This document shows positions 2,173 through 8,362 of a DNA stretch of 32,483 nucleotides, piece after piece. The stretch comes from an uncultured Oscillospiraceae bacterium (lineage in GTDB: Bacteria; Bacillota; Clostridia; Saccharofermentanales; UBA5734): the NCBI GenBank assembly GCA_964492455.1, contig CAZBKR010000003.1, positions 1-32,483 of the forward strand. The letters are read 5' to 3'. The number at the start of each line of letters is the position of its first letter. Position 1 is the stretch's first letter. The notes below the pieces were generated by a model. That model made no database searches. It was not told where the DNA came from and was given only the letters and a program-made list of their open reading frames with translations. A program made the position numbers and the translations under genes.

Positions 2173-2203
2173 GCTATAACGACGATAATCGGGAGCACGA
2201 GGT

Positions 2204-2548
2204 GTGGCTATGCAAGACGAGCAAACGAAAGCACGGTTCATGGAATTGCGGGAAATGATGAAAGGGTATACCGCTTCTTCCGTCCTGACATCGTCTCGCC
2301 CGTATCCGATCGTTAATAAAAGCCACGGACCGGATCGCCGAAGCGACCTTGGGGCAGGTGTTTATGGACAGCACCGCAGTCGACTTTGTCTGAACGGTGG
2401 TCCCCTACCGCAGCGAATGGAGGTATGTCACCAAAGCCCAGAAGTGCGCGCTGCTCGATGCAGGGCACGTGTGCCGGAATCTGTATTTGGCTTGCGAGGC
2501 GGTCGGGCGGCCGGTTTGACCCGTTCGGAGATCTACGCAGTTCCATAA
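2204..2548 (+). pseudogene. Decayed nitroreductase-fold gene (frameshifted, internal stop, internally deleted)
   Basis: Homology is spread over different frames. The frame of 2343..2519 reads ATLGQVFMDSTAVDFV(TGA at 2391)TVVPYRSEWRYVTKAQKCALLDAGHVCRNLYLACEAVGRPV(stop). This matches the conserved C-terminal core of nitroreductase/SagB-type proteins (..YR..llDaGHv.qNlyLaaeAlGl..). An N-terminal-like piece RFFRPDIVSPVSDR sits in another frame near 2270. The 114-aa track ORF itself translates to low-complexity Arg-rich sequence. Confidence 0.45.
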
Positions 2549-2701
2549 GCAATCGAATAACATAGAGGGCTCGCGAAACCTTGTTTCGATCGATACAATG
2601 AAGGCAAGAGCCGCACCGGCCAGTCCAGGGGCGGCGGTGTTGATTGGCCCGCGGCAGCAAGCCGCTCTCAAGCCGCCGGATGTGCGGCGAGGAGGATTCC
2701 T

Positions 2702-3490
2702 ATGCGCAAAGAAATCACGCTTCCCTCCCTTCGCCGGTTCAATCTGATCATGGGCATTCTGCATTTCATTCAAGGGGCCCTGATGCTGGGGTTCAGCATC
2801 GCCATCGACAAAATATCCGCATTTCGCCCGCCGCTGCGCACTTATTTCCTCACTTTCGATACTACACAGATGCGTCTCGTGACCGAACCCCGCGAAGCGG
2901 GCAGTCTGCCGTTCGGCATTCTGGTGGCCTGCTTCCTGCTGTTGTCGGCTTTGGCTCATTTCATCATCGTTCTGCCTGCAGGCAACCGGGTTTACAACCG
3001 CTCGATCGAGCAGGGAATCAATCCCTTCCGCTGGTATGAGTATGCGCTGAGTTCTTCCGTTATGATCGTGCTGATCGCATCGGTGTTCGGGGTCTATGCG
3101 GTAGATACGCTGATCGCCATCTTTCTGCTCAACGCCGGCATGAACCTGTTCGGGCTTCTCATGGAACAGATGAACGCGGGCAAAGAGAAGGGAAAGGTGC
3201 GGTGGGTATCCTTTGTGTTCGGGTGTGTGGCCGGGATCGGCCCCTGGATCGTGATTCTGCTGAACGCCTTTGGCAATTCCGATCCGGCGGAAATCCCCTG
3301 GTTTGTGATCGCGATCGCTGCTTCCTACTTTGTGTTTTTCAATCTGTTCCCGATCAATATGGTGCTGCAGTACAAACGGGTTGGCCGCTGGGCGGACTAC
3401 AAATACGGGGAGCGCGGTTACATCGTCTTGAGCCTGGTTGCCAAGACGGTACTTGCGTGGCTCGTGTTTGCGGGTGTCATGCAGCCATGA
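2702..3490 (+). CDS. Heliorhodopsin (7-TM retinal-binding protein, inverted topology)
   Basis: The 262-aa polytopic protein has blocks NPFRWYEYALSSSVMIVLIA, FGCVAGIGPWIVIL and YGERGYIVLSLVAKTVLAW. These correspond to the TM3, TM5/6 and TM7 signatures of heliorhodopsin 48C12 as I recall it. Schiff-base Lys is K248 (AAG 3443-3445), counterion Glu is E113, and the conserved His residues are H21 and H86. A strong RBS (GAGGAGGA) lies 6-7 nt upstream of the ATG. Confidence 0.9.
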   Translation: MRKEITLPSLRRFNLIMGILHFIQGALMLGFSIAIDKISAFRPPLRTYFLTFDTTQMRLVTEPREAGSLPFGILVACFLLLSALAHFIIVLPAGNRVYNRSIEQGINPFRWYEYALSSSVMIVLIASVFGVYAVDTLIAIFLLNAGMNLFGLLMEQMNAGKEKGKVRWVSFVFGCVAGIGPWIVILLNAFGNSDPAEIPWFVIAIAASYFVFFNLFPINMVLQYKRVGRWADYKYGERGYIVLSLVAKTVLAWLVFAGVMQP

Positions 3491-3546
3491 CGGCAGATAC
3501 CCGGAAAGACGCGTACCGGGTTCGGTCCGGGAAGCGCGTGGACTAG

Positions 3547-4008
3547 ATGCCGTCCGGGCACAAGATCCTTGCGATCCTGTTTTATGTCGGCCAATGGACC
3601 TGGGGGATTCCGGTTAATCTCGTCGGGGGATTGGGATGGCTGTATGGACATGCGCGTGGATTTCATCAGGAACGTTTTCTCCTCGCGCAGGTCACCTATC
3701 TTCCGACACGGCTGTCGGGCGGACTGTCGATCGGGATGTTTCTGTTTGTACCGGATCGCTACCGGATGCGGGAGACAAACGGGTGGGACCGTTCTCACAT
3801 GGTGCATGAGTACGGACATACATTCCAGGCTTTGATTCTGGGCATTCTGTACTGGCCGTTGATCGGGCTGCCTTCCCTGTTGTGGTATGCGCTTCCCCGT
3901 AACGCGCGGTTTCGCGCCAGGCGGGGGCTGTCATACTACTGGCTGTACACGGAGGCCTGGGCCAACCGTCTGGGAGCACGCGTGACCGGTTGGAATGCCC
4001 CGGTGTAG
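3547..4008 (+). CDS. Small polytopic membrane protein with HExxH (HEYGH) zincin motif; putative membrane metallopeptidase of an uncharacterised family
   Basis: The protein is 153 aa with about 3-4 hydrophobic segments (ILAILFYVGQWTWGIPVNLVGGLGWL, GGLSIGMFLFV, ALILGILYWPLIGLPSLLWYAL). HEYGH lies at residues 87-91 (nt 3805-3819). A possible third ligand, Glu in YTEAWAN (E136), lies downstream. The gene is on the same strand as the heliorhodopsin stop, 56 bp downstream, with no T-tailed terminator between them. Confidence 0.7.
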   Translation: MPSGHKILAILFYVGQWTWGIPVNLVGGLGWLYGHARGFHQERFLLAQVTYLPTRLSGGLSIGMFLFVPDRYRMRETNGWDRSHMVHEYGHTFQALILGILYWPLIGLPSLLWYALPRNARFRARRGLSYYWLYTEAWANRLGARVTGWNAPV

Positions 4009-4043
4009 GCGCTATGCGTCGATCATCGGGACGCGCTGCCTGT

Positions 4044-4382
4044 CTAGTCCTTGATGTACACCGATACACGTAAAACGCCTGCGGTAAAGGTGACATCCGC
4101 CTGATCCACCATCGCACCCAGCAGATAGTGATTGTCTCTGCCGGAGCCCATGTCGAGCAACTCGAGATAGTACGACTCCATCTCGGGTTGCACTCCGTCT
4201 GTGAGAGCCTGCCGGAAGGTGTCAAAATCCGATGGCACGTTCTGCGCGGATCCGCTGAGTTCGATGAGGTGGCCCCCGCCGTCCGGTGTCACCCGGAGAT
4301 GAACATCCAGGATCTCATGGTCCAGATAATAGCCGAGGAGTTCCGCCAGGATACGTTTGACTTTTTGTGTGGCTCCATTCAT
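4044..4382 (-). CDS. Hypothetical soluble protein (112 aa), translationally coupled to the upstream DUF1576-like gene
   Basis: Its ATG overlaps the stop of the upstream gene (ATGA at 4382..4379). Codon usage is consistent with its neighbours. I recognise no family. Confidence 0.6.
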   Translation of the reverse strand: MNGATQKVKRILAELLGYYLDHEILDVHLRVTPDGGGHLIELSGSAQNVPSDFDTFRQALTDGVQPEMESYYLELLDMGSGRDNHYLLGAMVDQADVTFTAGVLRVSVYIKD

Positions 4383-5656
4383 GGTTCCGGTTTTCCCTTC
4401 TTCCGCTGGGCGATGATCTCTTTCAGAGCGTCGAGGATCGGTACCATCGCAGCCGCGATGAATCCGCCCGAAAACCCGTTGTTGTAGAGGTTCATACCGG
4501 CATGGAGATCCCCGATGTTCATGACCATCGCTGTATGCAGCATGCCGGCCAGGATGCCGACGAGAGGACCGTAGTGGCCGCTGATCGGCGCGAGGGTGGT
4601 CCCGAACAATGCTGCCAGCAGCATAACAGTTGAATCAACTTCATAATGGTTGACCAGACCCATCAGGAAGACACCGAGCAGAATCGGCAGCACATTGCGC
4701 GGGTGCTTGCCGAACGCACCAAAGCCTACCACGGTAAAGATGCCCCCGATCACGGGTCCGGACAGATGCCCTCCCACCAGAAGAACGTACCCGGTCGATA
4801 AAAAGCCGAGCACTGCCATATTGACCAATGTCAAACCAAATCCCGATATGGTCACAAAATCCGCGGCCAGACGGCCGGACTGCCGCAACAGACTTCCGTA
4901 TCCGGCAAGCCGCCAACCCGAAATCCGGAGCCCTGCCACCAGCATCCCAAGGAAAAGAATGCCCAGCAGCAGTATGTAGGGGAGGTTGTCTGCGGAGGAG
5001 ACTTGATTGACCAGCCCGATCTCGATGCCGAAATTGCGTAGGACGGCGATGAAAAACATTCCGACAATCCCGGCGGTGAATCCGATATTGTAAAGATTAA
5101 AGCCCTGATGGAAGCGAAGCATGTGCATCGACAGCGGCGTCAGTACAAATCCCGCAAAGAGGCCCGCAGCGAAGCCCAGCAGTAACCCGATCGGTTGCAC
5201 AAGACCAAGATGAAAGGCCACTTCGCTGAACAGCGGCCCCAGCGCAGTTCCAAACAAGGCCTGCAGAAGATAGCGATCGAACGATGTGCGTGAGACCAGG
5301 GCATACAGATACACCCCGGCCATGATCGGGATGGAATTGAGCAGATTCTTCCCGAACAACGAGAATCCCGCCATCGTGAACACCGCAGCCACCAGTGGAC
5401 CCGTGATCCGGACCCGGCTCAGGCGGATGATCAGTATGGCGAGATAGGTCATGAGTCCGGCGTTCAGCAACGCCGCGCCCGGACTGGCCAGTGCAAAGTA
5501 ATCTGTGATGAGATTGGCCGGAGAAGTCAGGATGGTAAGGCTCCCGCGGAAGATTTCATCCGCGGGACTCAATAGAAAAGCGGCAGCGGTCAGCAACGTG
5601 GCAAACGCCAACAGAAACGGGGTCCTGTTTCTGTCTGTTGCTTCCGCCGCCGCCAT
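4379..5656 (-). CDS. Polytopic membrane protein, DUF1576-like (two-repeat architecture)
   Basis: The protein is 425 aa and hydrophobic throughout. It has an internal duplication about 200 aa apart (FNLYNIGFTAGIVGMFFIAVL versus MNLYNNGFSGGFIAAAMVPIL), as I recall for DUF1576 proteins of Firmicutes. The start lies 5 nt after the stop of the upstream gene. Confidence 0.7.
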   Translation of the reverse strand: MAAAEATDRNRTPFLLAFATLLTAAAFLLSPADEIFRGSLTILTSPANLITDYFALASPGAALLNAGLMTYLAILIIRLSRVRITGPLVAAVFTMAGFSLFGKNLLNSIPIMAGVYLYALVSRTSFDRYLLQALFGTALGPLFSEVAFHLGLVQPIGLLLGFAAGLFAGFVLTPLSMHMLRFHQGFNLYNIGFTAGIVGMFFIAVLRNFGIEIGLVNQVSSADNLPYILLLGILFLGMLVAGLRISGWRLAGYGSLLRQSGRLAADFVTISGFGLTLVNMAVLGFLSTGYVLLVGGHLSGPVIGGIFTVVGFGAFGKHPRNVLPILLGVFLMGLVNHYEVDSTVMLLAALFGTTLAPISGHYGPLVGILAGMLHTAMVMNIGDLHAGMNLYNNGFSGGFIAAAMVPILDALKEIIAQRKKGKPEP

Positions 5657-7792: not shown

Positions 7793-8362
7793 ATGCAGCT
7801 GATTCACGTGTTCGGAGCATCCGGATCCGGTACGACGACAATGGGGCGGGCGATCGCATCCGCATACGGGTATATCCACCTGGATTCCGACGATTTTTTC
7901 TGGGAACCGTCCGATCCGCCGTTTCAGCGGACCCGTACGGTGGAGGAGCGGGCCGAACGGTTGCGCGATGCGGTCGGGCAGGACGGCTTTTATGTCTTGT
8001 CCGGATCCCTGTGCGGCTGGGGGGATTTTCTGATCCCCCGGTTTGATCTGGCCGTCCGGCTCGTGACCCCCACCGACATCCGGATCCAACGGTTGGCGGA
8101 GCGGGAAAAAGACCGGTTTGGCGCCCGGATTCTCCCTGGCGGAGACATGTACGACAACCACCGTGAGTTCCTGGATTGGGCGGCCACCTATGACATCGCG
8201 GGACCCGACCAGCGAAGCCGTGCGTTGCACGACCAATGGTCGCTTCACCTGCGTTGTCCGTGTCTTGTCGTGGACGGTTCCCGTCCGGTGTCCGATTTGC
8301 TCAAAGAACTGGAACCTCATATCCAGAAAAATCCCGCCGCGGAAGCGGGTATAGGAGAATGA
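7793..8362 (+). CDS. P-loop NTPase/kinase, adenylate-kinase or FlaR-like (AAA family ATPase)
   Basis: A Walker A motif (GASGSGTTT) lies at the N-terminus, followed by IHLDSDDFFWEP as in topology-modulation/adenylate-kinase-like small kinases. AAGGAG lies 7 nt upstream of the ATG at 7793. The track start at 7616 overlaps nfeD and is rejected. Confidence 0.75.
   Translation: MQLIHVFGASGSGTTTMGRAIASAYGYIHLDSDDFFWEPSDPPFQRTRTVEERAERLRDAVGQDGFYVLSGSLCGWGDFLIPRFDLAVRLVTPTDIRIQRLAEREKDRFGARILPGGDMYDNHREFLDWAATYDIAGPDQRSRALHDQWSLHLRCPCLVVDGSRPVSDLLKELEPHIQKNPAAEAGIGE

Follow-up and report, generated by a model that had tools for sequence, protein, structure and literature searches.

What does it mean that a heliorhodopsin gene is followed directly by a gene for a small, membrane-associated, metallopeptidase-like protein: do the two encode a light sensor and its effector, or are they merely neighbours? 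This question is raised by a 32,483-nt stretch of DNA from an uncultured Oscillospiraceae bacterium (contig CAZBKR010000003.1 of assembly GCA_964492455.1; hereafter the window, with all positions given as those of the whole stretch). In it a heliorhodopsin (HeR) gene, open reading frame 1 (ORF1), is followed after a 56-nt gap on the same (+) strand by ORF2, whose product carries a HExxH motif and a distal glutamate. An initial annotation of this DNA had proposed them as a candidate light-sensor/effector pair. The anatomy of that proposal stands, as ORF1 is a real HeR, ORF2 encodes a conserved HExxH...E protein with hydrophobic helices, and the genes are co-directional, but the functional link is weakened by the absence of any HeR from 86 other loci of the ORF2 family and of the ORF2 family from 83 other HeR loci. 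The adjacency is confined to one narrow clade, and we consider it probable that HeR and ORF2 are co-transcribed neighbours by descent, ORF2 being an autonomous zincin-like hydrolase, and that they form no dedicated sensor/effector module.

Distribution of the pairing

The initial annotation had set as its own test the enrichment of homologues of the 153-amino-acid (aa) ORF2 protein near heliorhodopsins, and no such enrichment was found from either side. On the ORF2 side, we surveyed the best 80 of at least 449 genome loci together with six further ones, that is, 86 other family loci with flanks of up to 10 kb (1.17 Mb), and neither tblastn nor a HeR hidden Markov model (HMM) detected a heliorhodopsin in any of them. 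The family has no conserved neighbour at these loci, the largest neighbour cluster being present at 8 of the 80 genome loci; a link of ORF2 with NfeD/flotillin genes, seen in the window and near the homologue P0002, was rejected, as it occurs at 3 of the 86 loci only. On the HeR side we took 80 metagenome loci whose HeRs come nearest to that of the window (52-70% identity, with a single one at 98%) and the surroundings of HeRs that are 73-76% identical. At the 83 HeR loci outside the window's clade (0.56 Mb of flank, reaching at least 500 bp downstream in 73 and at least 2.5 kb in 48), the ORF2-family HMM found no member even at E ≤ 10, the 73-76% identical HeRs included. On viral contigs, the ORF2 family was found at neither of two HeR loci and HeR at none of 80 ORF2-family loci.

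The published recurrent neighbours of HeRs form ten classes, and the ORF2 family is not among them. An earlier survey stressed glutaredoxin and GSHPx genes and histidine kinases, and described one actinobacterial transcript class with 'a hydrolase, a peptidase and DUF393' (PMC8612252). Our literature search listed no publication joining a heliorhodopsin with a metalloprotease or a HExxH motif, in agreement with the initial annotation, which knew of no described pairing of a heliorhodopsin with a zincin-like protein.

The initial annotation had also named an outcome that would speak against it, namely a widespread, unenriched family whose adjacency to HeR is unique to this genome. The family is indeed widespread and unenriched, but the adjacency is not unique, since it is kept in a close relative and in a lineage whose HeR is 81% identical. 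The close relative, a metagenome contig (L084), has the same HeR-ORF2 arrangement, with the ORF2 counterpart at 934-1392. Its HeR and ORF2 proteins are 97.7% and 83.7% identical to those of the window (synonymous divergence, dS, 0.42 and 0.73), and ORF2 has evolved about ten times faster than HeR at non-synonymous sites (dN 0.106 versus 0.010). Both genes are under purifying selection, with dN/dS ratios of 0.024 for HeR and 0.145 for ORF2, in which every motif residue is retained.

The nearest distinct HeR (P0140, 81% identical) represents a sister lineage and occurs in three independent assemblies (L081, L082 and L083, including GCA_017997315.1 JAGOFF010000046.1). A block of about ten genes is syntenic with the window and runs in the order AKR-ferredoxin, amidohydrolase, nitroreductase, HeR, a variable slot, a convergent 112-aa gene, DUF1576, a 137-aa gene, FloA and NfeD; protein identity between the two lineages is 76% for the AKR-ferredoxin, 67% for the amidohydrolase, 81% for HeR, 54% for the 112-aa product and 78% for DUF1576. 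Because the three linked lineages share this whole block, descent alone accounts for the retained adjacency.

The variable slot itself has a different content in the sister lineage. In L081 (6001-9536), HeR is the first gene of a four-gene operon with overlaps of 4-8 nt, followed by a 289-aa kinase-like protein (weak matches to PD-T4-6 and to phage Ser/Thr kinases), a 327-aa protein in which the ORF2 homologue is fused to an FMN_bind domain, and a radical SAM enzyme of the Rv2578c/PA0069 type (SplB-like). The description of HeR and ORF2 as a self-contained unit is therefore accurate for this genome but not for the sister lineage, where a four-gene operon takes the place of the pair. The 327-aa protein matches the ORF2-family HMM at E = 8e-40, and its residues 1-146, 58% identical to ORF2, make it the closest ORF2 relative found; after residue 146 come a basic Arg-rich linker, a strong transmembrane helix and the FMN_bind domain. 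We rejected the idea that ORF2 is a truncated remnant of such a fusion: its C-terminus (RVTGWNAPV) is of the ancestral type and fits the usual ending of the family, and the FMN-binding part has its homologues in stand-alone genes with unrelated surroundings, which indicates that the fusion arose secondarily in the sister lineage. No further fused or HeR-linked relatives were returned when the 327-aa protein served as query. The sister-lineage operon is a better-defined candidate for a HeR signalling or repair module than the pair in the window.

The two genes and the junction between them

By its sequence, ORF1 is a complete and genuine heliorhodopsin gene. It matches the Pfam model PF18761 over its full length (positions 1-242 of 242; E = 1.7e-96, 322.7 bits against a cut-off of 26.7) and the NCBIfam model NF038020 (E = 3.1e-90, 302 bits against a cut-off of 100), which confirms its initial identification, and it has 6602 homologues at E ≤ 1e-20. 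In an alignment of 32 HeR relatives, E113 (in RWYEYALSSS) and K248 (in SLVAKT) are invariant; from what is established for HeR 48C12 and TaHeR, we take these to be the counterion position in helix 3 and the Schiff-base lysine in the last helix. Among the genes of the window, none for retinal synthesis was seen. Of the nearest HeR relatives (64-68% identity; for example P0163, P0165, P0167 and P0184), many are fusions of about 390 aa with MORN repeats (PF02493), matching the MORN-HeRs previously described in metagenome-assembled genomes of haloalkaline Syntrophomonadaceae (PMC8612252).

ORF2 has no match in Pfam, NCBIfam, PHROGs or PADLOC, and it flags a large family that lies outside all four of these profile libraries. 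A word-indexed protein search returned 157 homologues of about 130-200 aa; this search missed the closest relative, the 327-aa fusion, which was found only through the HeR-side loci, so absence from its list is not evidence of absence. With an exhaustive profile search, the representative clusters (50% identity) numbered 3425 at E ≤ 1e-3 and 1861 at E ≤ 1e-10; almost all consist of stand-alone small proteins. At least 449 stretches in species-representative genomes carry the family, and among the stretches listed the hosts are mostly rumen or gut Clostridia, Oscillospiraceae, Lachnospiraceae, Bacteroidales and Coriobacteriia. Rare multidomain members combine it with an alpha/beta hydrolase (P0374, 470 aa), with DUF2809 (P0308 and P0305, 283-335 aa) or with an anti-sigma-type HATPase_c_2 domain (P0329, 302 aa).

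Across 264 aligned family members, H87, E88, H91, Q94, G99, S110, Y130 and A139 are 100% conserved and E136 99%, while the QWTWG motif, at the turn joining the two N-terminal helices, is 91-97% conserved. Such near-total conservation means that the HExxH...E layout is not a chance occurrence, and it bears out the earlier recognition of a HExxH motif with a downstream Glu, laid out like a gluzincin-type site. ORF2 departs from the family at V23, A95 and W103 (nt 3613-3615, 3829-3831 and 3853-3855), which replace Q23, S95 and L103, conserved at 96%, 97% and 86%. The HeR-linked copies share Q23V, S95A/V and L103W, the L081 orthologue also being substituted at these positions. We rejected these substitutions as the mark of a HeR-linked subfamily, because the same trio (V23, non-S95, W103) is found in a small subclade without HeR (P0002, P0004, P0354, P0303 and P0376), whose genes stand beside an MFS transporter and NfeD/Band_7, beside GH123 and an acetyltransferase, or alone.

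The AlphaFold2 model of ORF2 is confident (pLDDT 89.4, pTM 0.83). It predicts helices at residues 3-18 and 21-36, four strands within 41-69, a 36-residue helix at 80-115 and helices at 117-126 and 134-147, with the HExxH motif at the start of helix 80-115 and E136 on helix 134-147. Judging from the antiparallel helix-hairpin geometry and the lengths of the helices, E136 would meet H87 and H91 at one site. The best Foldseek matches in the PDB are mostly gluzincin peptidases, namely BlaR1 (E = 0.14, probability 0.6), M1 aminopeptidases, EryP, selecase and abylysin, none of them significant and with template-modelling scores (TM-scores) of at most 0.41. When it was compared with viral models, ORF2 was matched best by members of its own family on gut phage contigs (E = 2.5e-10); SprT- and IrrE-type zincins came next, with E above 1. 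Sequence-profile links to the M48, M50 and M56 families were absent when 40 aligned members were compared with Pfam at E up to 10, which gave isolated motif-level hits (M50 at E = 0.058, M3 at 0.06); a sequence-profile search of the PDB with ORF2 returned FtsH alone (E = 0.61), and hhalign of the family profile against Escherichia coli HtpX gave a probability of 1.7%, with the HExxH turn alone aligned. Motif and fold likeness without links to the M48, M50 or M56 profiles suggest that ORF2 resembles a minimal gluzincin that is assignable to no curated peptidase family, and motif and predicted fold both favour the view that it is enzyme-like.

The protein had been called polytopic, which its hydropathy bears out only in part. 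Its segment 92-115 is clearly transmembrane-like (Kyte-Doolittle 19-residue maximum of 1.79, with a family median of 1.84 and 83% of members above 1.6), but the N-terminal helix pair is weaker (maximum of 1.3 in ORF2, with 24% of members above 1.6). FMN_bind-type domains are usually extracytoplasmic. The order of Arg-rich linker, transmembrane helix and FMN_bind domain in the sister-lineage protein, together with the predicted meeting of H87, H91 and E136 at one site, favours a re-entrant or monotopic anchoring of ORF2 at the cytoplasmic face rather than a simple two-pass topology.

The family is also common in phages, with 402 stretches in IMG/VR encoding it. Among the best 80 of these (27 clusters at 60% identity), 75 copies retain HExxH. 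An amidase endolysin (phrog_822, E = 8e-58) lies 41-48 nt upstream on the same strand in 5 of the 27 clusters, a 165-aa protein with an N-terminal transmembrane helix (phrog_26448) abuts downstream in 5 of the 27, and tail genes are found near the phage copies. Such a place in the lysis cassette, which is independent of heliorhodopsin, hints at a substrate connected with the envelope or with lysis, and the frequency of the family on phage contigs, with some copies beside endolysins, likewise argues for a HeR-independent role. The lysis-cassette arrangement was observed around position 8000 on IMG/VR contigs L205, L211-L215, L218, L228, L230-L232, L235 and L239.

At the junction of the two genes, no intrinsic terminator or sigma-70-like site was found in 2200-4500, and thus none between HeR and ORF2; the two are probably co-transcribed. 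In the predicted minimum-free-energy (MFE) fold of the spacer RNA (-35.4 kcal/mol, z = -2.05), a 7-bp stem encloses two small hairpins: GACGGCA (3489-3495), which overlaps the HeR stop codon, pairs with UGCCGUC (3548-3554), which overlaps the ORF2 start codon. Both arms are identical in L084 and the same stem again appears in its MFE fold, though the enclosed spacer has diverged. As the arms never vary, and hence show no covariation, the stem is suggestive only, and it is a possible translational-coupling element. The 6-bp hairpin first noted in the spacer does exist (3499-3504 / 3516-3521), but it is not kept in the diverged spacer of L084.

Table 1. Features of the HeR-ORF2 locus and its flanks, in window coordinates.
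Feature	Position	Strand	Product or role	Basis
HeR ribosome-binding site	2690..2695	+	Strong AGGAGG site, 6 nt 5' of the HeR ATG	Sequence reading
ORF1 (HeR)	2702..3490	+	Heliorhodopsin, 262 aa	PF18761 and NF038020, invariant columns, dN/dS
Spacer RNA structure	3489..3554	+	Predicted fold	MFE fold, comparison with L084
ORF2	3547..4008	+	Small membrane-associated HExxH...E (gluzincin-like) protein, 153 aa	Homologues, invariant motifs, AlphaFold2 model, dN/dS
QWTWG motif	3592..3606	+	ORF2 residues 16-20	Alignment, model
HEYGH (H87 E88 Y89 G90 H91)	3805..3819	+	Putative zinc ligands and catalytic base	Alignment, model
E136 codon	3952..3954	+	Within YTEAWAN; putative third zinc ligand on helix 134-147	Alignment
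Convergent gene	4044..4382	-	112 aa, function unknown; closes the unit on the downstream side	
DUF1576 gene	4379-5656	-	Membrane protein; 4-nt overlap with the 112-aa gene	
SagB-type nitroreductase remnants	2210..2507	+	Pseudogene 5' of HeR, between amidohydrolase and HeR	

The coordinates, strand and 56-bp gap initially given for the two ORFs, and the places of HEYGH and of the glutamate in YTEAWAN, agree with our reading (Table 1). So does the convergent orientation of the downstream gene, whose reality is borne out by a 54% identical orthologue in L081, at the sister locus; this gene and the DUF1576 gene are kept as a pair in the sister lineage, with a known function for neither. Upstream, the nitroreductase remnants lie in differing frames and correspond to residues 1-22 and 146-218 of the L081 orthologue (tblastn with the L081 gene), which is intact and matches TIGR03605. 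That this gene has become a pseudogene suggests ongoing decay or remodelling around HeR in this lineage. The remainder of the window is ordinary anaerobe chromosome, with genes for NrdD and its activase, G6PD, FolD, a GGDEF protein, an aquaporin, MFS transporters and others.

Explanations of the adjacency

In the explanation that we favour, HeR would be expressed together with a co-transcribed, independently acting ORF2, possibly coupled in translation through the RNA stem between stop and start codons. In ORF2, H87, H91 and E136 would hold a single zinc ion, and E88 would serve as general base; a substrate-binding edge strand, as in gluzincins, would come from the four-stranded sheet (residues 41-69), and the hydrophobic stretch 92-115 of the active-site helix, together with the Trp-rich N-terminal helix pair, would tether the domain at the cytoplasmic membrane face.

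Several observations weigh against this explanation. The Foldseek search of the PDB gave zero significant matches for the ORF2 model, the best having E = 0.14, and the hydrophilic segments on either side of 92-115 are both cationic (net +2.6 and +3.9), which makes the topology ambiguous. The short spacer, the absent terminator and the conserved stop/start stem suggest deliberate co-expression. The slot downstream of HeR was remodelled in the sister lineage, yet the ORF2 orthologue remained in a tightly overlapping HeR operon. Finally, there are HeRs that bind and modulate the products of neighbouring genes in their operons, namely AbHeR with glutamine synthetase (PMC9529153), TfHeR with a photolyase (PMC9769723) and OcHeR with the OmrDE ABC transporter (PMC11109279).

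An alternative that we regard as unlikely, though worth weighing, is shared regulation without physical coupling, in which the two genes would belong to one stress-responsive unit (for example for light, UV or oxidative stress) and ORF2 would serve in the maintenance of the envelope or of membrane proteins. The sister operon, with its SplB/Rv2578c-like radical SAM enzyme and extracytoplasmic-type FMN-binding domain, and the SagB-type nitroreductase upstream are consistent with such a unit, as are reports that HeR neighbourhoods are enriched in photoprotection, DNA-repair and oxidative-stress genes; the amidase endolysins adjoining phage copies of the family hint at an envelope-related substrate. 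However, the accessory genes are absent or decayed in the window, which has only a pseudogene for the nitroreductase and lacks a radical SAM gene; neither a regulator nor a promoter was identified, and the envelope link is based on 5 of 27 phage clusters.

Less credible to us is a clade-specific light-gated protease, in which HeR would bind ORF2 laterally in the membrane and illumination would alter its metallopeptidase activity, leading to juxtamembrane proteolysis. The arrangement at the junction (same strand, 56-nt spacer, no terminator, conserved stop/start stem) would suit it, and the linkage is kept in three lineages, one with 81% HeR and 58% ORF2 identity, despite insertions between the genes; the operon partners named above, glutamine synthetase, photolyase and ABC transporter, provide precedents. 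The HeR-linked ORF2s have, moreover, lost Q23 and S95, residues otherwise 96-97% conserved, but the same substitutions occur in homologues without HeR. The pairing is likewise missing from all 83 other HeR loci and all 86 other family loci, and the three linked lineages share synteny of the whole block. The roughly tenfold faster non-synonymous change of ORF2 gives no sign of co-evolution with HeR, and in the sister operon the kinase-like protein and the radical SAM enzyme are equally good candidates for a partner. In its most far-reaching form, which we hold to be improbable to the same degree, the HeR of a narrow Clostridia clade would have recruited an otherwise HeR-independent zincin-like protein as a membrane effector, so that light gates a juxtamembrane zinc hydrolase, and the effector of the sister lineage would, in addition, have become connected with an extracytoplasmic flavin domain, with a kinase-like protein and with a radical SAM enzyme. 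Were the HeR-ORF2 link true, proteolysis would join the few processes that heliorhodopsins control, and the pair would constitute a compact two-gene optogenetic module.

That ORF2 is no peptidase at all, its HExxH...E binding metal for another purpose or the protein being a small membrane-active lysis or holin-like factor, is very improbable, for although it is a small protein with hydrophobic helices and without a significant sequence or structure match to characterised peptidase families, and in some phages its gene is flanked by those for an endolysin and for a protein with an N-terminal transmembrane helix, a frequent place of holins, the absolutely conserved H, E and H with the distal E mark catalytic zincins, HExxH is retained in 75 of the 80 phage copies, and the best fold matches are zincin peptidases.

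We therefore retain the reading of HeR and ORF2 as neighbours by descent, and the locus shows how a plausible-looking HeR partner can fail the enrichment test. The new element here, a modest one, is a HeR whose neighbour is specific to the lineage and belongs to a large zincin-like family that no curated model covers. With 3425 clusters, an invariant HExxH...E and a distribution across gut and rumen bacteria and their phages, this family merits its own profile model and functional study.

Comparison with known systems

The operons of AbHeR, TfHeR and OcHeR resemble the window in that HeR is followed by a same-strand and probably co-transcribed gene. Their partners recur beside HeRs across many taxa, whereas the candidate partner in the window was found at none of the 83 other HeR loci, and, as a small membrane-associated zincin-like protein, it is on no published list of HeR neighbours.

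On the peptidase side, HtpX and Ste24 (M48), a family whose members are zinc peptidases, have a membrane-anchored HExxH...E site such as is proposed for ORF2, but ORF2 has no Pfam M48 hit and the hhalign probability against E. coli HtpX is, as noted, 1.7%. BlaR1 and MecR1 (MEROPS M56) likewise resemble the predicted ORF2 protein in having a gluzincin HExxH...E site at the membrane-cytoplasm interface on an active-site helix that is continuous with hydrophobic helices, and BlaR1 is the top PDB match of the ORF2 model (8exq/8exp), although not a significant one (E = 0.14-0.21, TM-score 0.37-0.41). Unlike these proteins, ORF2 lacks a Peptidase_M56 Pfam hit, a sensor domain and the four-transmembrane-helix architecture, and it has 153 aa against about 585. 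The minigluzincins (selecase, projannalysin and proabylysin; PDB 4qhf and 4jiu) have a minimal scaffold of about 100-150 aa of the kind predicted for ORF2, with a small sheet, a HExxH helix and a glutamate helix, but they are soluble and archaeal, and the fold matches are weak (E of 4-10). Compared with such a scaffold, ORF2 would have two additions, a Trp-rich pair of helices at the N-terminus and a hydrophobic stretch of 24 residues that lengthens the active-site helix.

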